In this document: positions 1,291 to 16,221 of the stretch, in pieces
Layout of the letters: every line of letters begins with the position of its first letter
How positions within the stretch are numbered: the first letter of the stretch is position 1
IMG/VR virus record: IMGVR_UViG_2565956726_000012
Location: 1-40,724 of that record
Length of the DNA stretch: 40,724 nucleotides
Source of the DNA: a virus
Taxonomy: Duplodnaviria; Heunggongvirae; Uroviricota; Caudoviricetes
Reading direction: 5' to 3' (one strand)
The notes under the pieces: model-generated
Databases searched by the model: none
What the model was told of the DNA's origin: nothing
What the model saw: only the letters and a program-made list of their open reading frames with translations
Position numbers and translations under genes: made by a program

Positions 1291-1773
1291 CTATCTGGTC
1301 AGGGTGTCGTATTGTTTTTCGCAGACTCTTCCGGCTTCGGCTGCCCGGTCAGCATACTCTGCCAGTTGTCTGTTTCTCTCGAGAGATTTGCTGAGCACGT
1401 CGGCAAGCAAAACTCCGGTGTCTGCGGCTGACGTCCCAGCGCCGACAATGGCGTTATACTGCCTGAGCTGCTCACGGATGGCAAAGAGTTGTTGCTGCAA
1501 CCGGCCAGCGCGAGCGGCAGCATCAAGAGCATCATTGCGCGCCTGGTCGATCCTCTGCTGCGCTTCACGTTCATTGATCGATTTCTCCTGTTCGTAGTGC
1601 TGACGAACTATCTCATCTTCAGCTTTGCGGTCTTCCTTCGCCTGCGCATACCCGGCATCGTACTGACGACTGCCGTGTGCATTCCAGGCTACAACTCCTG
1701 ATATGACCAGAACAGCAAGCACCGCCATGATAATCAACTGTTTCCGGTATGCTTTTACGAATGCCCAGATCAT
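1291..1773 (-). CDS. Spanin inner-membrane subunit (Rz-like i-spanin)
   Basis: N-terminal transmembrane segment then long charged coiled-coil; last gene of lysis cassette; start overlaps endolysin stop (ATGA); contains embedded lipoprotein ORF. Confidence 0.75.
1299..1574 (-). CDS. Spanin outer-membrane lipoprotein subunit (Rz1-like o-spanin), fully embedded in Rz in another frame
   Basis: Lipobox LALAGC after hydrophobic signal; Pro/Ser-rich mature part; entirely inside the Rz gene; exact start (M1 or downstream MML) uncertain. Confidence 0.65.
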   Translation of the reverse strand: MNVKRSRGSTRRAMMLLMLPLALAGCSNNSLPSVSSSGSITPLSALGRQPQTPEFCLPTCSANLSRETDNWQSMLTGQPKPEESAKNNTTP

Positions 1774-2399
1774 ACCGCCAGCACCTTACTGGCATTGATG
1801 TATCGCGCGCGCCGGTCGTCGATGCCGTTCCGGCCACCATTGATAATCAGAGTTACACGTGCAATATCGCCGGTATACTTCATGCATCCTTTGCTGGCAA
1901 AGAACCACGCCGCGCTACGAGCCGCGTATTCGTCCTGCGCCAGCAGTTCAGGACTCTCCAGCAGGTCAACCTTAAGACCGTTTCCACAGTCACGATAGTT
2001 ATTCAAACCGGTAACCTGGATAAGCCCGCGCCCACGGTAGTTCCAGCCATCACCAGGGGCATTGTTCCCCATGCGTTTGCTGTACACCAGATTGGCAATC
2101 GCTCTCTGGCGCTCAAGTGGCAATGGTGGTTCGCCTGCACGTCGCCCCAATGCGTTGGCCTGTCCCTGAGTGAGACGCCCAGCCCGAACAAAGTTAGCCA
2201 GTCCGGTGACGCTGTAGTTGAAATTTTCCTGCAACCGGTTGAAGCCACCAGACTCATGCCCGACCTGAGCAATAAACATTGCCTGATCTTCGGGTTTGCT
2301 GATACCAAACTCTTTCATCGCAGAAGTTATATGCGAGAACCAGCGTGCGGCCAGCGCCTCGCTAATACCAGCAGCTCGCTGGAATTGTTTAATCTCCAT
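1770..2399 (-). CDS. Endolysin, glycoside hydrolase family 19 (chitinase-like lysozyme)
   Basis: Motifs [29 protein letters not shown] typical of GH19 phage endolysins; GAGGT RBS 8 nt before ATG 2399; the longer track ORF to 2630 is an untranslated upstream extension. Confidence 0.85.
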
Positions 2400-2697
2400 G
2401 TTTAGACCTCGATATTTTGAAAATATGAACAACGTTACCGCGTGTTTTAATAACCGCGGCAAGCATGACAGCGTTGATAATGACCTCAGATAAATCCACA
2501 GCCATTGGCGTGCGTAACCAGATTGCATAGACGACACGAACAGGAATACTTGCCGCAGCAACAATAAGGAAATAAGCAAGCCACCCTCCCCATCTTCGAT
2601 GTTGAGAGCCGTTACGCCGGAATGTGACAACGCGAATTGCTATGCCAGTACAAATAACTGCATTGGTGATAAGCAAAAAAAACTCATGCGTTACCAT
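2389..2697 (-). CDS. Small lysis-cassette membrane protein (holin or antiholin-like)
   Basis: About three predicted transmembrane segments; overlaps holin stop and endolysin start. Confidence 0.5.
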
Positions 2698-3088
2698 CGT
2701 CTTTTCTCCCCGGAATTAACTCGCGTGGATTATCGGAACGGTGATAGAGCCAGATGCCAATACGCACGGCGACAATTGCTGACACGAATGCGCCTGCAGA
2801 GAAAACAATCCCTTTTTCAAAAGAGTCCTGCGTGATGGTAGGGATCAGGCTGGCTATGCCGATAAGAATTGATGCTGCTGGTTTGTAAAAGAGAAGGCCG
2901 CAAAGAAAGCTGAGCATCGACAGGAGCACCCGGCGACGGATGGGGTACTCTACTGCAGAGGTAACAAAAATTACCGCCCCAGCCAAAGCCCCTAAAGCAA
3001 CCTCCGGAGGGACACCTGCAATAACCGCAGCAAGAGAACTAACACTAAGCCACTGATTTGAAGTTTCATTGGTTAGTTGGAATGACAT
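2684..3088 (-). CDS. Putative holin
   Basis: 134 aa, multiple hydrophobic helices, charged C-terminus; first gene of lysis cassette immediately after tailspike. Confidence 0.55.
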   Translation of the reverse strand: MSFQLTNETSNQWLSVSSLAAVIAGVPPEVALGALAGAVIFVTSAVEYPIRRRVLLSMLSFLCGLLFYKPAASILIGIASLIPTITQDSFEKGIVFSAGAFVSAIVAVRIGIWLYHRSDNPRELIPGRKDDGNA

Positions 3089-3160: not shown

Positions 3161-5623
3161 TCAATTCCCTGTTAATTGCAAAACTTGCTCTTCCAGCTTT
3201 TTAACCCTGCGTCTCATCATCGCAGATTCCAGAATCAGAGCCTCTTCATAACGGATACCGTAACATTCACCAGCCTCGACGGCTTCGCGTACCAGAACCT
3301 TTGTCTGTATAAGTGGGTAAACTCCTGCAGAATGCTCTTCTTCCGTCACATCCCTGTATTCTGCCGGGGCCTCATTCCACTTGTCATAACAGATAAATGC
3401 CAGTCGTGACACATCTATGCCTTCATTCTGAAATACACTGATAACATGCTGCGCAACTGCACCAAAGTGCCATCTTGCTCCGTCTTTACCTTTCACTTCG
3501 ATCCTGTCAAGGTACTGGTATGAAACCCATTCCACTCTTTCCCATGCGTCCAGTATTTTCTCATCAATAACCTCTGGAGCAGTCTTGAAACGCGCATCGG
3601 ACAGCACCGTAAACGCTGACTGGGTAAATCCCCCCGACCATGCACGACCAGCCAACCCAAGAGAATAAGTATTCGTTGTCGATGGTGTCATGGCTGAATC
3701 AGAAAACTGTATATATTCTGAATTTCCAGTAGATATTCGAATATTTCCATTTATTAGCGACATAGTGCCTTTAGTATTATCACTATTGAATAATTTCAAT
3801 TGCGAACTTATACCGCCTCCCACAGCCAGAGATACATCGCCTTCAGCAAGCATTCTGAATTTATCTGCAGAAACAAGCGTCTGGTTAGCAAGGTTAAAAT
3901 ATTTAACCCACCATTCAAAACGCCCTGACATAGTCCCAACGTACTGACCAAGCGCAGGGACGTGAACAACATTGCTATTTGTAGTGCCGTCTATACTGGA
4001 AATACCAGTCACCGCTGATGCAGAACTCAGAATATTATTTCTGTCACCCGGATGTTTAATTTCAACAAAGTTCCTGATACACCCTTCCTCGAAGGTAACC
4101 ACGCCGGAAGAACTATACATGGGGAATATTGACGCATAATTACTGCGTGCAGCATCTAAGAAACGAATGGTTGTAGATGTCTGCAGATCTCCTGATTCAT
4201 TTTTCCCATCACACCCAGTCATTAGAATATTACTGGCAATATTATTATTTCCCTGAACGGTGACGCCGTGCGCCTGCTTTGCGTCCGATTCAGAGTAATC
4301 AACCAGCACATCCGAAATCAGGTTACCAGTCCCCTTGCCAACAACTACTGCGGCGTATTTTGGGTTGTTAGCCATTACACTGCTAATGATATTATTCGTT
4401 GGGGCAGTTTCCGTCTCAGTTCCATTGTAAACAACGTGCTGACACTCTTCACCAATAACATTGCTGACAATGTTATATTTTGCTGCTGTTTTAAGTTCCA
4501 CTGCACCAAACTGAGGATAATTTCTGGCTATCACACCATCAATTAGCGTATTTTGCGATGAATCAAAAAGCACACAACCTGCTTTTTTATTATTTGCGAA
4601 CCCTAAATACTCTCCTCTTATATCTCTAACAATGTAACCTGACGGAATACCATTATCCGGATAAGCGATCAAGCTAAATCCTGGTCCTCGCGTATTTGTA
4701 AATCTGATATTTTTAACCGATACATCATGGCCACCTGAAAATGACACCTGGTGTCCCTGCACACTATCATCTGATTTATTTCCCATAATTGTTAGCGTAC
4801 TAAGCATGCCACCATCGGGCATGTTAAAAACCAGATGATTACCATCTCTGTCATACTGTTTTATCGTTCCCCCACCTGTTCCGTACAAGCCACAACGTGA
4901 AAGAGAAACTAAAGATGTATTGAATACCCCTTCCGGAACAAAAACACTGCTAAACGAATGTAATGATTTTGTAAAAGCATCCTTGTTATCATTTAAGATT
5001 CCATTTTGAGCTCCAAAATCCTTAATGCTGACACCATCACGCATCTTATCCTGGAACGTTCTGTATACCGCTCCAGAACCATACTGAATAAACCAACCAA
5101 AACCACCAATAACTCCGGCGATTGCAGCATCGACATAATTACGCATTGAGCGATTATTTACAGCGTCCTGCTCAAGTGATGGATCGGCAAGGTTAGATAT
5201 TCTGTTTTGCTTTGCATCGTAATATTTTGCAAGCAAAGATGGTTTCATCAATGCACGTCTGAACCACCCAAAACATCGCTGGATCAGCATCGTCAGGTAG
5301 TCAAATGCATCCTCATGAACTTCGGGGAAAAATTTTCCCTGATTGCGAAGATCAGTCTCCTGCACCACATCAAGCACACGCTCTATCGTGATTCGCCAGC
5401 CAGCAGCAAGCGGCGACGGAAGAACCACTGCACCGCCACTATAAGTTCCCGCCCCTGTTACCGTATAACCAGCATCCAGCACTAGTTTTGTAACGTTACC
5501 GTTAAGGTCAGACACCTGAACAACCAGGTCGGATTTTTTGAAAATACGGAAGGTATACGGAAATGATGTCGTAACGCCGTTACCTGTGTATTCGTTGTGG
5601 TCAACTTCGGTTGAGACCGTCAT
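3161..5623 (-). CDS. Tailspike/tail fiber with T7 gp17-like N-terminal adaptor domain, central beta-helix-type region and C-terminal intramolecular chaperone (peptidase S74) domain
   Basis: N-terminus NEYTGNGVTTSFPYTFRIFKKSDLVVQV resembles T7-type fiber N-termini; C-terminal SDARFK motif followed by a coiled-coil tail typical of self-cleaving chaperone domains; GGAG RBS. Confidence 0.8.
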   Translation of the reverse strand: MTVSTEVDHNEYTGNGVTTSFPYTFRIFKKSDLVVQVSDLNGNVTKLVLDAGYTVTGAGTYSGGAVVLPSPLAAGWRITIERVLDVVQETDLRNQGKFFPEVHEDAFDYLTMLIQRCFGWFRRALMKPSLLAKYYDAKQNRISNLADPSLEQDAVNNRSMRNYVDAAIAGVIGGFGWFIQYGSGAVYRTFQDKMRDGVSIKDFGAQNGILNDNKDAFTKSLHSFSSVFVPEGVFNTSLVSLSRCGLYGTGGGTIKQYDRDGNHLVFNMPDGGMLSTLTIMGNKSDDSVQGHQVSFSGGHDVSVKNIRFTNTRGPGFSLIAYPDNGIPSGYIVRDIRGEYLGFANNKKAGCVLFDSSQNTLIDGVIARNYPQFGAVELKTAAKYNIVSNVIGEECQHVVYNGTETETAPTNNIISSVMANNPKYAAVVVGKGTGNLISDVLVDYSESDAKQAHGVTVQGNNNIASNILMTGCDGKNESGDLQTSTTIRFLDAARSNYASIFPMYSSSGVVTFEEGCIRNFVEIKHPGDRNNILSSASAVTGISSIDGTTNSNVVHVPALGQYVGTMSGRFEWWVKYFNLANQTLVSADKFRMLAEGDVSLAVGGGISSQLKLFNSDNTKGTMSLINGNIRISTGNSEYIQFSDSAMTPSTTNTYSLGLAGRAWSGGFTQSAFTVLSDARFKTAPEVIDEKILDAWERVEWVSYQYLDRIEVKGKDGARWHFGAVAQHVISVFQNEGIDVSRLAFICYDKWNEAPAEYRDVTEEEHSAGVYPLIQTKVLVREAVEAGECYGIRYEEALILESAMMRRRVKKLEEQVLQLTGN

Positions 5624-6392: not shown

Positions 6393-7103
6393 ATGGCTAA
6401 TGCTCAAACTGCCATCTTCAAATTTGAATCTGTTAACCCTATCCGTTCCATCATTATCGATGGCCAACCATGGTTTGTAGCCCAAGACGTTTGTAGTGCG
6501 CTGCGCATCCAAAACGTCACCCAAGCACTTGAAAAACTGGATGATGATGAAAGGTCTATGTTCAACATAGGGCATGAATATCGTGCAATTTTTGACAGCC
6601 GAGTAAAAGAGATCAACATCATCTCCGAGTCAGGCCTCTACACACTGATCCTCCGCTGCCGCGACGCAGTGACACCGGGCACTATCCCCTACCGCTTTCG
6701 TAAATGGGTTACAGGTGAGGTTCTTCCTCAGATCCGCCGCACCGGAAGTTACATTAAAAACTCGCTCCCGCAGGAAGAACGCATAAAGATGGTTGCCGAC
6801 CAGGTTGCAAACGCCACAGCATCAGCAGTGATGCAGGCAATGAAGATAGAGAACAAAACCTACAGCGCCCCGCTGAAGCCCGGCTACCGCAGCCTGATTC
6901 ATTCTCCGTCTGGTGTTCTCGGCCTGACGGAGAACTCATTGCTGATGAATCTGCTGAATCAGTTGCAGGACGACGGGCATGATGTATCGGGCGCGGCGGC
7001 GGAGCTGACCACCATGTTTTGCTACATCGTTGGTGTGAGCAAATGCCTGCGTGATATCCAGACGCACGCGGAGTACATCAACGACAAGGCAGGGTTCTTC
7101 TGA
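6393..7103 (+). CDS. ant: Antirepressor, Bro-N N-terminal domain plus ANT-like C-terminal domain
   Basis: Bro-N-like N-terminus (FKFESVNPIRSIIIDGQPWFVAQDVCSALRI); GGAG RBS 9 nt before ATG 6393; the GTG at 6378 in the track is an unlikely start. Confidence 0.8.
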   Translation: MANAQTAIFKFESVNPIRSIIIDGQPWFVAQDVCSALRIQNVTQALEKLDDDERSMFNIGHEYRAIFDSRVKEINIISESGLYTLILRCRDAVTPGTIPYRFRKWVTGEVLPQIRRTGSYIKNSLPQEERIKMVADQVANATASAVMQAMKIENKTYSAPLKPGYRSLIHSPSGVLGLTENSLLMNLLNQLQDDGHDVSGAAAELTTMFCYIVGVSKCLRDIQTHAEYINDKAGFF

Positions 7104-7148
7104 CAGAACGGCGGCACAGGGATGTGCCTTTAAATAATTCTGTACAGA

Positions 7149-7191
7149 TTGCAGACCGGGGGTGAATAGCGTACTATTACCTCAAGGGTAA
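7149..7191 (+). promoter_or_regulatory. Sigma70-like promoter (TTGCAG-17-TACTAT) with operator copy I (TTACCTCAAGGGTAA)
   Basis: Same -10-abutting operator architecture as copy B. Confidence 0.55.
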
Positions 7192-7251
7192 ACGGATTGG
7201 TTTCATTTTTATTAATCCGTGTAATGAACTTATGAGATATGAGGTAATGTC

Positions 7252-7431
7252 ATGCGAAACGAAAAATTGCAGATGCGTAGAGCGCAAGCTGCCGCAAGAC
7301 GTTCTTTCAATGGAAGCGTAGAGTACGTAAAAGTTACTATGGCAAAAGATCACGCAAGTCGCGTATCCCGCGCTTTCTTTGATTCTCGTAACAATAAGGA
7401 AAATTATGAGTTCGTCTGCGTCGCAGAATGA
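7252..7431 (+). CDS. Small basic protein (59 aa), candidate antitoxin-like partner
   Basis: GAGGTAA RBS 5 nt before ATG 7252; Arg/Lys-rich; 3-prime end overlaps start of next gene by 26 nt; below the 60-aa cut-off of the ORF track. Confidence 0.35.
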   Translation: MRNEKLQMRRAQAAARRSFNGSVEYVKVTMAKDHASRVSRAFFDSRNNKENYEFVCVAE

Positions 7432-7951
7432 TAAAAATCAAATTGTCAGATATAAGGGTCGAGTATTGCATACGCAAAATTTCTCGGCCCTTTGTGCATC
7501 TGATCTTGAGCTGAAGAAAGTATCTGATGCCTTTGCCCAGTATTGGAAAACGGGATACCATCCATCTCTTGGTAAAGATGCTGCATTTGCTCGTCCGACA
7601 GAAATGCTTAAACTAAATGTCAGGCATGCTCATGTCGATAACCAAGACTATATTCCAGAAGATAGTGATAAAAAACACACTGGTAAAAAATCATCTTGGG
7701 ATGCATGGAAAAATATAGCGTCTGTACAAGTAAAATGCATACCAACAAGTGATTGCTTTTTAGTTTATTCGGTAAATCACAATCGTGATGCGCTGGTTAT
7801 GTTTTTTGTTGACGCAGATGCCCACAACATAACTGAGCAAGAAGAGTTTAAAGAGGCAGCAATCACTATCAGTTATCAATTCTTTGAGAAAACAAAAACA
7901 GAACCAATGCCTTTAGAAGAAGATCTTTTTTCTGATAAATGGAAGGAATAA
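7406..7951 (+). CDS. Hypothetical protein with possible YafO-like toxin N-terminal region plus acidic C-terminal extension
   Basis: AAGGAAA RBS before ATG 7406; segment GKDAAFARPTEMLKLNVRHAHVD recalls a YafO-family motif from memory only; AT-rich codon usage; own promoter and terminator. Confidence 0.45.
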   Translation: MSSSASQNDKNQIVRYKGRVLHTQNFSALCASDLELKKVSDAFAQYWKTGYHPSLGKDAAFARPTEMLKLNVRHAHVDNQDYIPEDSDKKHTGKKSSWDAWKNIASVQVKCIPTSDCFLVYSVNHNRDALVMFFVDADAHNITEQEEFKEAAITISYQFFEKTKTEPMPLEEDLFSDKWKE

Positions 7952-7973
7952 GCCCGCGTTGCGGGCTTTTTTT
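7952..7973 (+). terminator. Rho-independent terminator
   Basis: Stem GCCCGC/GCGGGC followed by 7 T immediately after stop at 7951. Confidence 0.7.
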
Positions 7974-8045
7974 ATGGACGAAACAAAAGTCAGTGCTACA
8001 CTCATTGACGCCACATTGAGGTGGCTTATAGATGGAAATTTCACA

Positions 8046-8207
8046 ATGAAAAAAGCATTTGCTGCACTGTTCGTTTTGTTGTCTCTGGTAGCTTCAACTC
8101 AGGCCTTTGCCGGTCGTTGTCAACACGACAGCGATACTGCCGCTGACGGCTCCCGCTGCGGTGGGCGTTCTGCGGATTCCCGCCCGGGCGGCGGTGGCAT
8201 TCGTTAA
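8046..8207 (+). CDS. Small secreted Gly/Arg-rich protein (53 aa), hypothetical
   Basis: Signal peptide MKKAFAALFVLLSLVASTQAFA; GGAAA 7 nt upstream; the longer track ORF from 7959 would start inside the upstream terminator and is rejected. Confidence 0.4.
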   Translation: MKKAFAALFVLLSLVASTQAFAGRCQHDSDTAADGSRCGGRSADSRPGGGGIR

Positions 8208-8229
8208 AAACAAGGCCGCGAAAGCGGCC
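8204..8229 (-). terminator. Rho-independent terminator for the minus-strand structural operon
   Basis: Stem GGCCGC/GCGGCC with GAAA loop; on minus strand followed by TTGTTTTT. Confidence 0.6.
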
Positions 8230-8243
8230 TGTGACATGTCACA
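8230..8243. repeat. Perfect 14-bp palindrome TGTGACATGTCACA (copy 1 of the GTGACATGTCAC family)
   Basis: Exact self-complementary sequence; same 12-bp core recurs at 25642-25653 and 27907-27918. Confidence 0.8.
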
Positions 8244-8804
8244 CTACATTGATATATGATTCATAAAGTAGCTTAAAGATTTACTTCCCAGAAAAGAAAT
8301 TTCTTTTCCTGGATATGTCGCAATAATTGAGCATGACTTATCCCCGTTAGAGGTAACAAATCCTGAATAACCTACTTGTTCTTTACCATTTTGTTGCTTG
8401 GCTAAAAAGTAGAGGTAGCTTATCTTTTTGCCCTCTGGGTAAAACTCTGCCAAACCAGTATCGGTGATTGAATATTTTATTCTCCCGCCTTGAGTAACGT
8501 TTTCCATCTCAAGTTTAGCTATGTCTTTTCTGTTGTATTCAGCATTGATTTTCCTTTTGAAATCAATGTTGTTTTCAAATGAGTAGGAAGCAACAGTCTG
8601 AATAGATGGGAACACGTTTATCTGGATGCCTCCACAGTCGGCACAGGTATAAAGGTATGAATCAGATGGAATCCCCATAAAAGAAAACTGAGTTACCTTA
8701 AATTTATCGCTATCTCCAAAGTATTGAAGTTCGCATTTAACATTTTTCCCTGCAAAAGAAAATGCAGACATCAATATTGAAACAAAAAATATAATTGCCT
8801 TCAT
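8244..8804 (-). CDS. AT-rich secreted protein (cargo gene), possible superinfection-exclusion or conversion function
   Basis: Signal peptide MKAIIFFVSILMSAFSFAG; markedly lower GC than neighbours; sits after the ejection-protein genes and before the tailspike. Confidence 0.6.
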   Translation of the reverse strand: MKAIIFFVSILMSAFSFAGKNVKCELQYFGDSDKFKVTQFSFMGIPSDSYLYTCADCGGIQINVFPSIQTVASYSFENNIDFKRKINAEYNRKDIAKLEMENVTQGGRIKYSITDTGLAEFYPEGKKISYLYFLAKQQNGKEQVGYSGFVTSNGDKSCSIIATYPGKEISFLGSKSLSYFMNHISM

Positions 8805-8806
8805 TA

Positions 8807-11359
8807 TTATTTACCTAGCATGAACTGCGATGGTGGGATCAGAAAGTCGTTACCCTGCTCACGCTCAACACGGCGCTGATAACGCTCAAGAGAGCCTGGG
8901 TCAAGGGCATCTTGTATCCGGTTCAATATTAAACCATTCATCGCCGTACGAAGCCAGAACACGTTGAGGAATGGCGTATTGTCAAGTGCCGTGCGATACC
9001 AGTCACCCAAATCTGCATCCCCTCTCGTGGTCTGCTGGAGCAGCGTGATAATGCTGTCAGCGTTCGATGCTGCTGGCCCCATTAGCGACGTAACCGGCCC
9101 GGCCCCCATGCGGTTGACCTCGCCAAACATGAAGTCACCCAAGATGCCAAGACCGCCCCCCTGAGATGCGGCTGCGAGAAACGTCTTGGCATCTGCCGGG
9201 CGTGGTGTTTGCCCTTTCAGCATGAGTTTTGACTGCATGGAGATATAACCAAACATAGTCGCCCAGACAAAGAGGTTTGCAGCACCAAGGAAAGCCCCCT
9301 TCCCGTTACGTAGCAGCGCATTCGTCAGCGATCCGGTTTTCGACTCACCAAGCCCAGCAGGAATATAACCACGCCCGAATACTTCGCGTCCTAGTACGTT
9401 CTGCATGAAGCTTGCAGTGAACGATTTGTACTGACCAGCGAATCGTATTGCTTCCCCAGCCACCGTTCCTGGCACCGTGCCCATCTTCATAAACGCCTGC
9501 GTGCGATCGCCAGGCTCTGACATGGCGATATTCAGGCGGTCAAGGATGTAGCCGCGCAACTGCCCTTCCAATTGATCGCGTGCGTCAGCGATAGCGCGCT
9601 GCGTTGGTTTGATCCCCTTACTCTCTACATAACCGGCAATCACTTCGTCAGGCACGCCGCGGATGCCGCTGGTCGTCATGAACTTACGACCTTCGCTATC
9701 GGCCATGTCCATGTTGCGAAAAATTTCCCACTCACGTTCGCCAATACCGTGCAGATCCAGCACGCGTCGCAGGTCTTCCGGTAGCCGCGCATGAGACTGG
9801 TCAGCATTCTTTGCAAGCCAGTTGGTTATCATCATGGCGTTGCTGTTGCGACCGCTCTCGGTCCAGAAGTTCATGAGGTTGTACTTAAAGAAAAGCTGCT
9901 GCGCGCGACCAAGCTTTCCATTCAGCGTGTCATCACCAGATATGCGCCGGATGATTTCCTGCGTCATGGAGTCGGAATAAACTCCGATAGAGGAAAGGAT
10001 CTCTTTCTGCTCCGCGCTGTTGTAACGCGTGAAGCGGCCTCTCATAGCACCAAGCAACGCCTGCATAAAATTCTGCCCTTGGTAGCGCATCTCGGTAGCG
10101 GCGATAGGCACGTCGTTAAACGATGAGATTACCGCGCCACCAAGTTGGCTCATACGCAACCAGCCGCGTACAGCCGCCGACGCATTGGCCCAGCCTACGC
10201 TGCCAGGAATATTTAGCGAGCCGTCAACCTGCGGCATTACGGTACGGTTAATGCGACGCACCTTCGTCATGTAGTCAGCCAACGCTGCCGGTCTTCCGGA
10301 TTTGCTGATATCTTCAGCAATGGCGTCCGTCAGGTACTTAAACATGTTCTGTGGGTTAGTGCCCAGTACGCGCATCATGCCCGTTGTGCGGGCAGCGCTG
10401 TTTAAGCCACCAAACAGCGCTTCTCGCAGGCTGCCGGTGCCGAATTGCTGGTTGTACTCGTGCCACGAGATACCATCTTTGAAGTGCAAAATTCGCTCTT
10501 GGCTGGCGCGTTTAGCTGCGTTCGCCGATCCCTTAAAGCCATTCATCCAATCGGGCTTTTCAGATGTAAGATGCACGCCGGAAGCCAGCCCGTTATAAAT
10601 GTTACGCATGAACTGCTCGCGGTCAGCCACGCCGTCAAAAGTGCGCTCATCAAGGCGCGGGAGAATAGCATTTCGCCATGCTTCATAACCTGCGGCGCGG
10701 ATCTTCATGATGTCGTGTGACTGGCGCACTATATAGCCCGGCTCTTTGCGTATCCATGCCCCGGCGCGGTTCTCATCAATGCGCGCAGTTTCCTGCCATT
10801 TCATGATGATTTGTGCAGCGCTTACGGATTGCTTTGTCATACCGTCAGTTGACTGCCCGCGCCCTATGCGCCACATTGCATCGGCAATTTCCCGGTCATT
10901 GCTGCCGCTGGCGATGAATTGCACCAGCCCGGCACGGTCAAAATCGTAGTTGATACCGGAATGATACTTGCCGCGCAGTTGCGCCACCTCCGAAGATACC
11001 GACCGGCGGGCGCCGGTACGCGCATCGTTGCGGCCAACCAGCATTGCTTCAAGCCCGATATCCGGGCGGTCTTTCCAGATAGTACGAAGCTCTCTAAGTC
11101 GTTGTGCGGCAATACGGGCGTTGATTGCCTTATTGCGAGCCTCAATCTGTTTTGCCAGCATATCGGCATTGCTCAGTTCTTCCGCTGCGCGCATCGCGGC
11201 CTCTTCCAGAGACAGCGCCTCATTGGTCGCCAGAATTCGCCTAGTGGTGTCGTTCATGTCACGCACCAGCGACTCCATCTCATCGGAAGAAAGCTCGCGA
11301 CCAGCGGCAGCATTTACACTGCGCTCGCACTGCGTCAAAAATTCGTTTGCTGCCATCAC
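8807..11359 (-). CDS. Large internal virion/ejection protein
   Basis: 850 aa; in operon after the transglycosylase-domain protein; overlapping start/stop with neighbours. Confidence 0.65.
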   Translation of the reverse strand: MMAANEFLTQCERSVNAAAGRELSSDEMESLVRDMNDTTRRILATNEALSLEEAAMRAAEELSNADMLAKQIEARNKAINARIAAQRLRELRTIWKDRPDIGLEAMLVGRNDARTGARRSVSSEVAQLRGKYHSGINYDFDRAGLVQFIASGSNDREIADAMWRIGRGQSTDGMTKQSVSAAQIIMKWQETARIDENRAGAWIRKEPGYIVRQSHDIMKIRAAGYEAWRNAILPRLDERTFDGVADREQFMRNIYNGLASGVHLTSEKPDWMNGFKGSANAAKRASQERILHFKDGISWHEYNQQFGTGSLREALFGGLNSAARTTGMMRVLGTNPQNMFKYLTDAIAEDISKSGRPAALADYMTKVRRINRTVMPQVDGSLNIPGSVGWANASAAVRGWLRMSQLGGAVISSFNDVPIAATEMRYQGQNFMQALLGAMRGRFTRYNSAEQKEILSSIGVYSDSMTQEIIRRISGDDTLNGKLGRAQQLFFKYNLMNFWTESGRNSNAMMITNWLAKNADQSHARLPEDLRRVLDLHGIGEREWEIFRNMDMADSEGRKFMTTSGIRGVPDEVIAGYVESKGIKPTQRAIADARDQLEGQLRGYILDRLNIAMSEPGDRTQAFMKMGTVPGTVAGEAIRFAGQYKSFTASFMQNVLGREVFGRGYIPAGLGESKTGSLTNALLRNGKGAFLGAANLFVWATMFGYISMQSKLMLKGQTPRPADAKTFLAAASQGGGLGILGDFMFGEVNRMGAGPVTSLMGPAASNADSIITLLQQTTRGDADLGDWYRTALDNTPFLNVFWLRTAMNGLILNRIQDALDPGSLERYQRRVEREQGNDFLIPPSQFMLGK

Positions 11360-13053
11360 ATCCCCCGGTTAATCATACAGGCGGCAAATGCCCGGAAAGC
11401 GTTGCTCATGCTATTGTCGCTGGCGTCGGCACGAATATCATTGAGTTTCTGGCGCAACGTGGTCGCAAGATCAGGGTTATCGACAGCGATATCGTCAAGC
11501 AGGGCGTTACTCAGGTTGAGCTCGTTATCAAGGTCTGCAGCGGCAGCGGTAATTTCATGATCTGCCTTTTGCGTTTCTTGATAAACCCGATCGGCTGTTT
11601 CGCTTGCTGGGCGAGCCGTTTCATCAACCTGCCGTGCCGGGTTCTGTATGCGATGGATGGCGCGTTCACGCAGTGCCGGTTTGTGCAGTTCATAGAAGGG
11701 CTCAACATCTGGGCTACGTCCTTCCATCATGTGTGCCAGCGCAGCGCGATACGCCTGCTGGTTCACGTTCCAGTCAGCATCCCTGATGGCGCTTGCGGCA
11801 GTGCGAACTGCGCCAGCGACCGGCGACATCTGCATGCCGTCCAGGATCTGCTGCGCACGCTCGGAAATGGTGACTTTCAGGTCGTCGGGGATCTCGCCGC
11901 GGGAAATCTGAGACTGGCGCCAGCGCGCCTGCTCTGCTGTCGCGTTCTGCTCCAGCGATGTGTTGATCTCCTGATTGCGTGCAGCGATGGCGTCTTTCTC
12001 GGCCTGAATCTCTTTCAGTGCCCTAGAGCGCGCATCCTTAAACTTCATCCGCTGCCCCTGATACTTTTTGGTGCGCTGCTGCAGCGTCGCATCAAGCGAG
12101 TCAGCATGACGTTGATTAGCCGCAAGCTCGGCACGCAGGTCGGCAACGTTACCGATCTGACCGCTCTGTAATTCCTGCTGGCGCGCCATATAGTCAGGAA
12201 CCACGTCGTCATAAGCCCGGCTGTATGCGTAGCTCTCCGCTTCACTGGAAATGGCCGCCGCCAGATCTGCGTTAGCGCCAACCTCAGGGATATTCACGCC
12301 CGCCGGAATGTTGTCAGGCGTTATCACCGGGGTTGGCTGCGCATCGCCAGAAAACGCCGGGGACTCTCCCGTTGCAGCATCGGGAACGCGACGCGGTCGC
12401 ACGATATCGGCGATAAGGCCGCCGCCGGCATGCATTAGACCGCCAGCCATCGTGTTAAAGAAAGTACTTTCCAACGCGTTGCTATAGGTGAAGTCGTCAC
12501 CTTCCGCCGCCGCTGCCAGCCCGGTAAGCGGCACGGTCACCACCGCCTGCGCTGCCCCCATGCGTGCACCAGCAACAAATCGCTCGCCAAATCGGCCAAG
12601 CACAGAAGCCGCCTTTGCTTCTCCAGCGAACGGAACCAGCGCCAGCGCCACGTTACCAGGATCTGCCATTGAACCAGCTAGGCTGGCTGCGAAATTAAGC
12701 GGCGTGGCTACCCATCCGCTCGGTGCCGACATCGCGATCTGCTGGCGTGCCAGAGAATCTTTGCGTTCGGCAATAACATGATCGAGAAAAGCCTGCGTAA
12801 CGCCAGAATCTGGCACGTTTATGCTCTTTACGCCGTACTGCTTCAGGAGCTCATCCGCTTCCTGCTTGCTGATAACTGTAGAGTTTGGGTCATTCGCCAG
12901 CGAGTCGGCCTGCGCAAAGCGGTAGCCGGACATGACCGGCCCCTCTTCAAATCCCTGCTTAAGGGAAGAAAGCAGCGATTCACCAAGCCCTGCTGGCGCG
13001 TTGCCAATTGGCTGGTTAATTCCCTGTCCCGGATCATCTGTGTAAATTGGCAT
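11356..13053 (-). CDS. Internal virion/ejection protein
   Basis: 565 aa; Ala/Gln-rich predicted coiled regions; operon position between two large internal proteins. Confidence 0.6.
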   Translation of the reverse strand: MPIYTDDPGQGINQPIGNAPAGLGESLLSSLKQGFEEGPVMSGYRFAQADSLANDPNSTVISKQEADELLKQYGVKSINVPDSGVTQAFLDHVIAERKDSLARQQIAMSAPSGWVATPLNFAASLAGSMADPGNVALALVPFAGEAKAASVLGRFGERFVAGARMGAAQAVVTVPLTGLAAAAEGDDFTYSNALESTFFNTMAGGLMHAGGGLIADIVRPRRVPDAATGESPAFSGDAQPTPVITPDNIPAGVNIPEVGANADLAAAISSEAESYAYSRAYDDVVPDYMARQQELQSGQIGNVADLRAELAANQRHADSLDATLQQRTKKYQGQRMKFKDARSRALKEIQAEKDAIAARNQEINTSLEQNATAEQARWRQSQISRGEIPDDLKVTISERAQQILDGMQMSPVAGAVRTAASAIRDADWNVNQQAYRAALAHMMEGRSPDVEPFYELHKPALRERAIHRIQNPARQVDETARPASETADRVYQETQKADHEITAAAADLDNELNLSNALLDDIAVDNPDLATTLRQKLNDIRADASDNSMSNAFRAFAACMINRGM

Positions 13054-13054
13054 G

Positions 13055-15676
13055 TTATCGTCCTGATTGCTGGCCGTTCTGGAAAATGTTAATCAGGTTG
13101 TCGCGCTGACTTTCTGCGCTGTATTCCTTAGACTGTCCGGGAGTATATTTCACCGGAGTATCAATGAACTTGGTAATGCTGTTCCATACTGATCGGTTGG
13201 TTGTTCCCAGTTTCGCCAGATCGTTGAACGGCACCGTAATCGGGTTGCCGTCGGCACCGTTGACGATCAGCCCGTTGAGCATCAGGGTAAGTCCTGTTTC
13301 GTCGCTGTTGGTAACCCACTGCGCATTATCACGAATGCGGGAGATACTCTGCTCACGGTTGACCTCATCAGGTAGCCTTGGGTCACCAATAAGCGGCATA
13401 ATCTGATCTGCTGACAGGTTTTTCAGATACGCATTGGCACCATCGTTAACGTCACGAATATCTATCCCTGCACGATTAGGTAGCCGCCAAGTGCCATTGG
13501 TCTGGTACTGCTCGCCGAGGATGTCCTGATACGCCTGTTTTGCTGCATCAGACGCCGACATTCCGCGCTGCATGTTGATGTAAGTAAGTCGTTTTCCCTG
13601 CTCGTTGAAGTTATTCCACACGGCAGTGCCACCAGGCTGAACAACCATCGTGCCAGCAAAATCTTTCGATTGGTCATTCCATGACGAGTCGGCGCTATCC
13701 GCGTCGGTTTTCTCAAGACTGCCGCGTAAGTCAGCAGTTTTAACGCTACGGTTTTGCCAGAGCGCATTTGCCGCGCGCGGGTTCTCGGTAGCCATGACAA
13801 CCTGCAACGCAGGATAAGCGCTCTTCTGAACCTGCTGCATCACCTGATCCGAGTATTTGCCGAACGACTGCGCCACCGACTGAATGGCCTTAACGCTAGA
13901 TTCCTGCGTGTTGTCAATACGCTGCAGTACATCATTGACCATGGACTCCGGTAAAACTTTTTTGCTCATTATCCCCAGGCGGTCTTTTTCAGACTGTATG
14001 CGAGAAACTAGGTATTCACCAGATGAAGGGTCATTCAGGTACTGCTGGAATGCAGCCTGCACAACCGGAGAGTTTTGTTGCAGCCATGCCCCCGGATCCG
14101 CTTCCCGCGCCTTCAGTACCTGCCCAAGCTTGACCTTTGCCGATGCATAAAGCTCTGCTTTGTATTTAAAGTCAGGGTCGTTTTCCTGCGGTGCCATTGC
14201 CTGCACGGCGGCGGTACCCTGCTGGACGTTGCCCTGCATAATGGTCTGATAAACAGGTTGTAGCGTCATTGCCTGCTGGTATTGCTGGAAGGTTTTTTCC
14301 ATCTGCAGGCGCTCGGCAGGCGCTGCCTGAAGCGGCATAACGGCGGCCCATTCGTGCGCTGAAATAGGCGTCACCTGCTTACCGGCCTCAATTTTGGATA
14401 GGTCGTCCTGCATTCGACTCTGTAGCGCAACGCGACCGGCTGAAGCCTGCATGTCGTACATGCCAGCAACCTTGCTCATCATCTGCGACTTTTTGTCCGG
14501 ACTCATGGCGTTCCAGAATGGCTGTGCGATGAGGTTTTCCATCGTCGCAGATCCAGGAATAGCTCCAGCACTGCCAGTTACTTTTGCCACATAATTGCGC
14601 GTCTCGTCGTATGGGATAGCTGCGGCAAACTGGGCGTTACTGACTTCGCCTGTGCGCGGATCGCCAATCTGTTTAATCCAGCCGTCAACCTTTCCTGGGC
14701 CAGCGTTATAGGCAGCTACTGCCAGAACCGGGTTATTGTCGTATTTCTTCATCTGCGCGCCGAAATAAGCTTGCCCCAAGCGGGCATTATAGCGCGGGTC
14801 ATTCAACCATTTATCGCGGTCCCACGGCACGCCAGCAAGGCGGGAAGCTTCGGGGCCAGTATCTTCCGTCACCTGCGCTACGCCAACAGCGCCTTTTGGC
14901 GACACCAGAGGTGTTCCGTCCTTTCCGTACTGATTTCCGCCACTCTCCTGCCAGATTATTGCAGAGAATAACTGCGCCTCACTCGGTGTATCGGTTACCT
15001 CAATCTTGCCGTTCGGACCCATGATCTGTTGATACATCGGCACATACCACGCCTCCGCCGCACCGTTCGCGGCATTCTCGCGCCACGAAACCCAGTTCTG
15101 TTCGATCTCTTCCTGACTCTGGCCGTGGGCTTCGCCGTAAGCGATGATGCTATGATATGCCTTCAATCCTGCCTGGTTTGCCATTGTCGGGTTACGGAAC
15201 TGCATCGATAGGTTTTTTAGTGTCGCATCCTGCATATCCGCCTCATACTGGCGAACCTGTCCTATTTCGTACCTCCCGGCCTGCGTAGTGAACTGAATGC
15301 GCTGCTGCTGCGCCTGCTGCATGAAAGCATTACGAGCCTGTTCATCCGGCAGCGACACAGCCAGTTGTTCGACCTGAGCATCAAACTGCTGCGTATACTC
15401 CTGACCTTTTCCAATAGCATTTTTCCCTTTCAGGTTAAGCAATCCTGTTTCAGGATTATTCAGCAGATCACTGCTTATCTGACTGAGGTTAAGAGATGCC
15501 TCCTGAGCCAGAGCGATATTGGCACGCTGTTTTGCCTGACCAAAAACATCAATTGCCTCTGCCCCTGCCCGAACAAAAGCATCACCAATACCTGGCTGAG
15601 AAAACGTCTGCAAGCCTGCTGACTGAACTCCACGGCTCTGAACCTGACGGCCGGATACTGTTGGTACGACTGGCAT
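13055..15676 (-). CDS. Internal virion protein with lytic transglycosylase (SLT) domain
   Basis: SLT motifs WQESGGNQ, GVAQV, AAYNAGPG; GGAGG RBS before ATG 15676 (TAATG overlap with upstream stop); track ORF to 15751 is an N-terminal over-extension. Confidence 0.8.
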   Translation of the reverse strand: MPVVPTVSGRQVQSRGVQSAGLQTFSQPGIGDAFVRAGAEAIDVFGQAKQRANIALAQEASLNLSQISSDLLNNPETGLLNLKGKNAIGKGQEYTQQFDAQVEQLAVSLPDEQARNAFMQQAQQQRIQFTTQAGRYEIGQVRQYEADMQDATLKNLSMQFRNPTMANQAGLKAYHSIIAYGEAHGQSQEEIEQNWVSWRENAANGAAEAWYVPMYQQIMGPNGKIEVTDTPSEAQLFSAIIWQESGGNQYGKDGTPLVSPKGAVGVAQVTEDTGPEASRLAGVPWDRDKWLNDPRYNARLGQAYFGAQMKKYDNNPVLAVAAYNAGPGKVDGWIKQIGDPRTGEVSNAQFAAAIPYDETRNYVAKVTGSAGAIPGSATMENLIAQPFWNAMSPDKKSQMMSKVAGMYDMQASAGRVALQSRMQDDLSKIEAGKQVTPISAHEWAAVMPLQAAPAERLQMEKTFQQYQQAMTLQPVYQTIMQGNVQQGTAAVQAMAPQENDPDFKYKAELYASAKVKLGQVLKAREADPGAWLQQNSPVVQAAFQQYLNDPSSGEYLVSRIQSEKDRLGIMSKKVLPESMVNDVLQRIDNTQESSVKAIQSVAQSFGKYSDQVMQQVQKSAYPALQVVMATENPRAANALWQNRSVKTADLRGSLEKTDADSADSSWNDQSKDFAGTMVVQPGGTAVWNNFNEQGKRLTYINMQRGMSASDAAKQAYQDILGEQYQTNGTWRLPNRAGIDIRDVNDGANAYLKNLSADQIMPLIGDPRLPDEVNREQSISRIRDNAQWVTNSDETGLTLMLNGLIVNGADGNPITVPFNDLAKLGTTNRSVWNSITKFIDTPVKYTPGQSKEYSAESQRDNLINIFQNGQQSGR

Positions 15677-16221
15677 TATAATCCTCCGGGTAATCTGGTT
15701 CCTGCTGCTGCCCCGATTGGCGCAGGGGTGCTTTGAGTAAACGGACTCCACGTCCCACCAAACATCTGGTACGCACCGTATGCCTTCAGAGGCGCAGTGA
15801 GCAATGTTGTTGCTGCTCCCACATTCCCCTGTTTACGGGCTGAACTGGCTTCTGCTTTATAGTTGGCAGCCTGAACCTGATAACCGTAAGCCTCGCGTTG
15901 CGCGTTATTCACCGTCGTCAGAGAATCAAGAGCGCCAAACTGGGCAGTGTCGCCAAATATATCCAGCGCGTTACCTGTAGATAAATCAGCGCCGGTAGCC
16001 CCCATTGTCGCCGCCTGTGTACCAAGCCGCTGTCGGGTCTCTCTGCGCCGTTGCTCAGCTTCAGCGTTACCTCTGTTTATTGCATCATTTGCCTGAGCTG
16101 TGGCTATATCTGCGTTCGCTTCTGCAACCTTCGAGGCATACTTTCCCTGTTGGTACTGGGTGTATGCCTGAATGCCACTCATGGCGAGCATTGCGCCACC
16201 AGCAATAACCGGATCGCACAT
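15676..16221 (-). CDS. Internal virion protein (T7 gp14-like position)
   Basis: 181 aa; N-terminal hydrophobic segment then Ala/Gln-rich region; operon position. Confidence 0.5.
   Translation of the reverse strand: MCDPVIAGGAMLAMSGIQAYTQYQQGKYASKVAEANADIATAQANDAINRGNAEAEQRRRETRQRLGTQAATMGATGADLSTGNALDIFGDTAQFGALDSLTTVNNAQREAYGYQVQAANYKAEASSARKQGNVGAATTLLTAPLKAYGAYQMFGGTWSPFTQSTPAPIGAAAGTRLPGGL

Follow-up and report, generated by a model that had tools for sequence, protein, structure and literature searches.

An accessory gene for a predicted periplasmic protein closes the ejection-protein operon of an epsilon15-like Escherichia coli prophage

Among the closest described counterparts of the locus considered here is sieA of phage P22, an accessory gene that is present in 22 of 66 phages and is invariably located between genes 16 and 9; the SieA proteins form three types that are ~25% identical to one another and target ejection proteins, with escape mutations in gp16 and gp20, and the gene is up-regulated upon induction (PMC10883804). 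T4 Spackle (gp61.3) is a small periplasmic phage protein that neutralises the gp5 lysozyme domain which a superinfecting phage delivers into the periplasm (PMC7677548). Here we describe ORF186, an open reading frame (ORF) for a precursor of 186 amino acids (aa) on the − strand of a 40,724-nucleotide (nt) stretch of DNA (positions 1 to 40,724 of IMG/VR virus record IMGVR_UViG_2565956726_000012), which as a whole is called the window below. The window is a prophage integrated beside yfgG, yfgH and yfgI of Escherichia coli. ORF186 is exchangeable accessory (moron-like) cargo and the last cistron of the ejection-protein operon, and we class it as a member of a rare, uncharacterised family, an exclusion or conversion cargo gene behind the ejection genes. 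We tentatively propose that its product would act in the periplasm as an immunity-like binder and would keep superinfecting phages out via their ejection proteins, a reading to which we give somewhat less than an even chance.

The first-pass annotation of this DNA had placed the gene where P22-like phages carry superinfection-exclusion genes. That analogy with sieA holds for accessory status, slot and divergence: both genes directly follow the last ejection-protein gene and precede the tailspike, both occur in only some relatives, and both have deeply diverged alleles in a constant slot. It does not extend to homology, topology or promoter. No homology to any of the three SieA types (A, B and C) was detected, as judged indirectly from PHROG, Pfam and NCBIfam scans. 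SieA passes through the inner membrane several times, whereas ORF186 has a single, probably cleavable N-terminal segment and is predicted to be soluble in the periplasm; SieA is expressed from its own promoter in an 85-bp upstream region, whereas ORF186 has an upstream gap of 2 nt. The carrier also differs from P22. Judged from its sequence, it is an epsilon15/phiV10-like phage (Uetakevirus) with T7-like gp14/SLT core proteins, and ~15261-36000 of the window is 97-98.5% identical to isolated Uetakeviruses (PAS61, phiv142-3, ZX5 and O157 typing phages; phiV10/epsilon15-like), so the P22-like assignment had to be dropped. Spackle acts in the way that we propose for ORF186, but its sequence and fold are unrelated. 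T5 Llp and phi80/T1 Cor, which give exclusion, are phage-encoded and exported, as is predicted for ORF186; yet both are lipoproteins, whereas ORF186 lacks a lipobox and is three times larger.

The ORF186 gene and its predicted product

The gene and its immediate borders comprise the following features.

8244-8804, − strand: ORF186, ATG start, 186-aa precursor of a predicted secreted protein with a Mog1/PsbP-like fold
8751-8804, − strand: predicted Sec (signal peptidase I) signal peptide, ORF186 codons 1-18, cut after S-F-A
8805-8817, − strand: junction with the 850-aa gene, 2-nt gap from TAA stop to ATG, with an AGG Shine-Dalgarno core within the end of the 850-aa gene
8213-8230, both strands: bidirectional intrinsic terminator directly past ORF186, ending the late/ejection operon and a convergent + strand gene

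Base composition sets ORF186 apart from the adjoining sequence. Its GC content is 0.351 (0.342 at third codon positions, GC3), versus 0.552 (GC3 0.61) for the adjoining 850-aa gene and 0.496 for the full window, and at z = −3.4 it falls in the lowest 0.06% of all 561-bp windows. The step is abrupt at both edges (0.57 at 8044-8243, 0.345 at 8244-8443, 0.355 at 8605-8804 and 0.615 at 9005-9204), in line with the sharp drop that had been noted before. The protein is identical or nearly so to a RefSeq 'hypothetical protein' of the WP_000643933 type. On the opposite strand the only rival ORF of at least 40 aa is one of 50 aa that overlaps the terminator. ORF186 is a real gene under selection, since the ratio of nonsynonymous to synonymous substitution (dN/dS) against the Salmonella allele is 0.14, reflecting purifying selection, since 15-19 residues are invariant in the family down to 27% identity, and since the AlphaFold2 model of the product is confident (below). 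The invariant residues include four cysteines, C24, C54, C57 and C158 in precursor numbering.

The precursor begins with MKAIIFFVSILMSAFSFA, followed by GKN beyond the predicted cut, and thus combines a basic n-region and a hydrophobic core with an S-F-A site in keeping with the −3/−1 rule; A-x-A-type cleavage sites are kept across the family. These features match the signal peptide proposed in the first-pass annotation, one that Sec and signal peptidase I would be expected to process. Hydrophobic 19-residue windows of ORF186 start solely at residues 1-5, and the mature part contains none in any of 15 family members. A lipobox ([LVI][ASTVIGC][GAS]C) is likewise absent from the first 35 residues of 15 family members.

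No domain was recognised in ORF186 by Pfam, NCBIfam or PADLOC, as had been reported, and a Pfam scan of 20 family members relaxed to E 10 gave nothing meaningful, including no match to PsbP, DcrB or DUF1795. The sole library match is to phrog_11983, of 'unknown function', over the full length (E 5e-130). In the literature we found no paper that names WP_000643933 or that ties Uetakevirus or DcrB to the ORF186 protein; PMC3573123 concerns another moron, neaT.

Structure prediction was more informative. AlphaFold2, given mature ORF186 with 20 diverse homologues, returned a model with a predicted local distance difference test score (pLDDT) of 89.9 and a predicted template-modelling score (pTM) of 0.87; an earlier model from the full precursor with 14 close homologues had a pLDDT of 42 and was unusable. 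By structural similarity the model has the Mog1/PsbP fold, an alpha-beta-alpha sandwich with a central antiparallel sheet, which is common to DcrB, the Eag chaperones and periplasmic immunity proteins of type VI secretion systems (T6SS). Identity to proteins of this fold (PsbP; DcrB/DUF1795, with SciW and EagT6; Tsi3; TplEi; Tli4; LpqN) is 4-13%, and ORF186 differs from them in having its own four-cysteine pattern and its own genomic niche. Given the four invariant cysteines, the fold is probably disulfide-stabilised.

Operon, slot and exchange of the family

ORF186 follows a set of genes for T7-type virion core proteins, namely a gp14-family protein and an SLT-domain protein, together with two further internal virion proteins.

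15676-16221, − strand: T7 gp14-like internal virion protein
13055-15751, − strand: 898-aa internal virion protein with an SLT (lytic transglycosylase) domain, from NCBIfam transglycosylase matches and RefSeq annotation
11356-13053, − strand: 565-aa internal virion protein, phrog_3003, with a weak match to phrog_342 'internal virion protein'
8807-11359, − strand: 850-aa internal virion (ejection) protein, phrog_684 'virion structural protein' (E 6e-272)
3161-5623, − strand: tailspike, with an N-terminus of the epsilon15 gp20 type, a beta-helix and, at the C-terminus, an S74 chaperone domain

Relatives of the 850-aa protein carry annotation as internal virion or virion structural proteins. Along the − strand the order runs from the gp14-like gene through the SLT-domain (898-aa), 565-aa and 850-aa genes to ORF186 and the terminator, which confirms the position originally described, after the ejection proteins and before the tailspike. 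Convergent + strand genes (for a 53-aa secreted protein, a YafO-like toxin and a Bro-N/Ant protein) lie between the terminator and the tailspike. The terminator corresponds to an annotated phiV10 terminator.

No sigma-70-like promoter was called in a − strand scan upstream of ORF186. Together with the 2-nt gap and the ribosome-binding core inside the 850-aa gene, this indicates that ORF186 closes the late/ejection operon as its last cistron. The arrangement recurs throughout the family: the gap between the homologue and the gene upstream is 2-23 nt in all phage loci, which leaves no intergenic space for a promoter. A weak internal promoter inside the 850-aa gene may nevertheless exist. An extended −10-like sequence there, TGGTTTAAT at 8936-8928 (−), was picked out by eye, has no credible −35 element and is not relied on. 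The lone sigma-70-like match within 7000-9500 lies on the other strand, at 8231-8260 (+) (GTGACA, an 18-nt spacer and TATGAT), just beyond the terminator, and is directed antisense into the ORF186 3' end; chance probably explains it.

The ejection genes themselves are set apart from the rest of the prophage. From 8244 to ~15260, a segment that covers ORF186, the 850-aa and 565-aa genes and most of the SLT gene, there is no near match in any isolated phage, and the nearest isolated-phage relatives of the 850-aa protein belong to Stenotrophomonas phage BUCT708 (49%) and Pseudomonas phage Ab31 (45%). Since ~15261-36000 is nearly identical to Uetakeviruses, this 7-kb ejection module is a swapped mosaic block.

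The ORF186 family is small. A search of 5.8 billion proteins yields 17-21 clusters (90% identity), one of 1.84 billion yields 8 credible representatives (50% identity), and 241 million metagenome records contain 6 loci. The members include sequences from Escherichia, Salmonella, Citrobacter, Cronobacter, Enterobacter, Klebsiella and Hafnia. Complete E. coli genomes carry ORF186 in 56 of 5426 cases (~1%), from human, pig and chicken sources. All 56 E. coli genomes that match the end of the window's 850-aa gene also have ORF186, and none matched that gene end alone. Some 440 further E. coli genomes share only the flank beyond the terminator, with homology ending at the ORF186 stop (8242-8246); ORF186 is therefore present in 56 of the ~500 that share the adjacent flank. 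The most divergent family members (27-29% identity), at L009 1263-1829 and L010 861-1421 (L numbers are our labels for loci), are stand-alone non-phage genes, and they share a similar AT-rich upstream region and a strong AAGGA ribosome-binding site.

Within phages the position is fixed. A homologue directly follows a gene of the 850-aa type (845-855 aa) in 24 of 24 phage contexts (9 diverse loci and 15 IMG/VR loci, the latter examined for the upstream 850-type gene only), and this linkage persists even at ~33-36% identity of the ORF. In Klebsiella (L034) the homologue stands directly between an 848-aa gene and the tailspike. The converse does not hold. None of 12 species-representative genomes with an 850-type gene (44-92% identity) has an ORF186 homologue, and tblastn against the 50,697 phage records of INPHARED, a collection of isolated phages, gave no match. 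ORF186 is thus accessory rather than core, and a role as a conserved core virion gene, one of the two findings that the first-pass annotation had named as refuting its proposal, is ruled out by this distribution.

What occupies the slot in other prophages is also telling. Two Klebsiella species and a Leclercia carry a signal-peptide-bearing homologue of Rap1a immunity proteins (PF18602, 48.8 bits against a threshold of 27.7), Serratia a 136-aa lipoprotein, and P. vulneris a 67-aa protein with two transmembrane (TM) segments. In E. coli prophages with a phiV10-type module it holds either a 46-aa 2-TM or a 98-aa multi-TM protein, and in four Pseudomonas prophages it is empty. The alternative occupants (2-TM and multi-TM proteins, lipoproteins and a periplasmic immunity homologue) are all envelope proteins, and we conclude that this slot behind the ejection genes is a hotspot of cargo directed to the envelope. 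The Rap1a-type protein shares with ORF186 its slot, strand, signal peptide, AT-richness relative to the flanks and, as predicted for ORF186, a role as a periplasmic binder, but it belongs to an unrelated family, and ORF186 has no Rap1a match.

The Rap1a-type genes lie at L014 6047-6430, L015 6056-6412 and L017 6047-6430 (Klebsiella sp. I138 and R390, and Leclercia sp. EMC7). The profile scan was made on the L014 copy (E 1e-12), to which the N-termini of the other two are near-identical. All three are AT-rich, and the L014 copy represents a prophage-borne orphan T6SS immunity gene inside an ejection operon. In a metagenomic epsilon15-like lineage a 137-aa lipoprotein gene follows the ORF186 homologue (L005 8636-9049 and L006 1768-2181); it is AT-rich, has the lipobox LFGC and has no Pfam match.

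ORF186 shows both the variable presence and the atypical base composition of a moron in the Hendrix/Juhala sense. As to the further feature of a promoter and terminator of its own, the terminator is present at 8213-8230, and on the promoter side there is only the 2-nt gap, with no − strand promoter called. Low GC had been read as a mark of recent acquisition, and as stated this has to be rejected: the ORF186-type gene is AT-rich relative to its neighbours at every locus (0.31-0.43 versus 0.48-0.57), down to ~33% identity, so that AT-richness is a trait of the family and not a sign of recent arrival. Independent exchange of the cassette is nonetheless supported, because synonymous divergence (dS) between the window and Salmonella locus L030 is 0.30 for the ORF and ~2 for the adjoining 850-aa gene. 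Across the same pair, nucleotide identity climbs from ~75% to >90% between 9200 and 8300. Elsewhere the difference is reversed, with 850-aa proteins that are 95% identical between L008 and L027 and ORF186 homologues that are 46% identical. Over the family as a whole, divergence of the ORF follows that of its neighbours (Spearman 0.79-0.83, from pairs that are not independent, so that p-values have no meaning), and the 565-aa gene co-diverges with the 850-aa gene. ORF186 diverges faster than the ejection genes do and is exchanged independently of them, a pattern typical of arms-race cassettes.

Superinfection exclusion and its alternatives

Based upon these observations, we suggest the following course of events. 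The ORF186 product would be made in the lysogen and exported by Sec, losing its 18-residue signal peptide, and the mature protein would fold in the periplasm as a non-enzymatic alpha-beta-alpha sandwich of the Mog1/PsbP type. There it would capture or block part of the conduit through which related podophages, on entry, deliver DNA across the periplasm and which they assemble from their ejected proteins; the 850-aa, 565-aa and SLT-domain proteins are the candidate targets. The outcome would be superinfection exclusion after adsorption, with ORF186 as a functional analogue, not a homologue, of SieA and Spackle. Several lines of evidence favour this reading: the deep and near-exclusive linkage to one type of ejection module, the lack of any association with toxin genes, the arms-race pattern of evolution, the envelope nature of all other cargo in the slot, and the close parallel with P22 sieA. 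Spackle sets the precedent here, as a soluble protein of the periplasm that inhibits an injected one (PMC7677548).

Other observations weigh against exclusion. ORF186 abuts a late gene with no − strand sigma-70-like promoter upstream, and its expression may be confined to the late lytic phase. The Mog1/PsbP fold is a generic scaffold for binding and does not single out a partner. The Rap1a homologue in the slot of sibling prophages points equally to anti-T6SS immunity. Finally, one of the two non-phage family members lies near TraI_2/ArdC-like genes of a conjugative element and the other beside SymE.

A narrower form of the exclusion idea, in which the ORF186 family and the 850-aa-type ejection module make up an effector-immunity-like pair, we regard as rather unlikely. 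Eag chaperones cradle TM helices of T6SS effectors, and by the same token the soluble PsbP/Eag-fold protein would capture hydrophobic or TM segments of the ejection proteins of superinfecting podophages, and this capture would abort assembly of the trans-envelope channel. The Rap1a-type occupants bear more directly on another possibility, that ORF186 is an orphan periplasmic immunity protein which protects the lysogen, by lysogenic conversion, against a periplasm-acting toxin of competitors, such as a T6SS peptidoglycan hydrolase or phospholipase effector or a bacteriocin. The fold is shared by the immunity proteins Tsi3, TplEi, Tli4 and Smlt3025, the slot protein of Klebsiella and Leclercia passes the Rap1a threshold, and ORF186 itself has a predicted periplasmic location and four conserved cysteines. 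A T6SS or effector gene was annotated in none of the 11 contexts whose gene tables were read. We consider orphan immunity unlikely. Masking of a receptor or host factor, in which ORF186 would attach, from the periplasmic side, to an outer-membrane protein or to a host factor required for DNA entry, for instance as a soluble DcrB-like decoy, and would thereby shut the entry route in the manner of T5 Llp or phi80/T1 Cor, seems improbable. A short local resemblance to the N-terminus of T5 Llp (residues 1-41, E 0.035) is not significant, since a broader profile reduces it to E 0.27 and the signal peptide accounts for part of it; Llp is absent among the fold matches, ORF186 has no lipobox whereas Llp and Cor are lipoproteins, and we accordingly rejected a relationship to Llp. 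We also know of no established secondary protein receptor for epsilon15-like phages, which counts against masking.

The operon structure lends itself to a different account, in which ORF186 helps late in the lytic cycle, by tuning lysis or by shielding infected cells or progeny from lysis from without or from wasteful ejection into lysing cells. It is the last late-operon cistron, 2 nt after the 850-aa gene and upstream of the terminator, with no detectable promoter, and P22 sieA is likewise up-regulated on induction (PMC10883804). Yet most relatives dispense with ORF186, and the lysis cassette (holins, a GH19 endolysin and a DUF2514 protein, at ~1291-3088) is separate from it, so that we think such a helper quite improbable; this account overlaps with the exclusion model rather than opposing it. 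That the protein is instead a cytoplasmic Eag-like chaperone for TM segments of the neighbouring ejection proteins, or a minor virion or assembly factor, is very improbable. The Sec-type signal peptide and the four invariant cysteines favour export, most phages with the same ejection genes lack ORF186, so it is not essential for assembly, and its alleles swap independently of the supposed client.

If the exclusion reading is right, a soluble periplasmic class with the PsbP/DcrB fold would join the few exclusion proteins of understood mechanism, SieA, Spackle, Imm, Llp and Cor, and the protein would open a way to study the passage of epsilon15/T7-like ejection proteins through the periplasm. 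As ~1% of complete E. coli genomes carry it, it may influence susceptibility to phages. If the pairing with the ejection module is also right, ORF186 would represent a mechanistically new, soluble class of superinfection-exclusion protein, and epsilon15-like phages would in general use the post-ejection slot as a locus for periplasmic immunity, where Rap1a-type proteins would be another choice of cargo. Searches for new envelope-acting defence or conversion genes could usefully start from this slot.

Neighbouring genes and a related element

Ejection genes with an ORF186 homologue also occur in an unusual setting. L026 and L027 (1-14709) carry a 44%-identical homologue together with 848-aa, 562-aa and truncated SLT ejection genes, and this block is flanked by a tyrosine integrase and an AlpA/DUF927-primase block. 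This could be a satellite-like element that carries ejection genes, or else what is left of a prophage after fusion with a P4-like element. A 569-aa repeat protein (P0024, E 4e-6) among the family search results we regard as a spurious, repeat-driven match over a short stretch.

Beyond the terminator, the YafO-like toxin gene at 7379-7951 (+) is, besides ORF186, the other strongly AT-rich gene of the window (GC 0.372), and its PF13957 match is just above threshold. Its counterpart in the reference genome has no antitoxin gene annotated alongside, and in sibling prophages its position is taken by DUF2335, DUF4760 or other genes. The 53-aa secreted protein encoded at 8046-8207 (+) is rich in cysteine and glycine (MKKAFAALFVLLSLVASTQAFA before the predicted cut, GRCQHDS... 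after it), matches phrog_14503 'membrane associated protein', and converges on the same terminator as ORF186. It is kept in ~500 E. coli genomes and has a homologue in a Pantoea prophage (L021 6074-6262).
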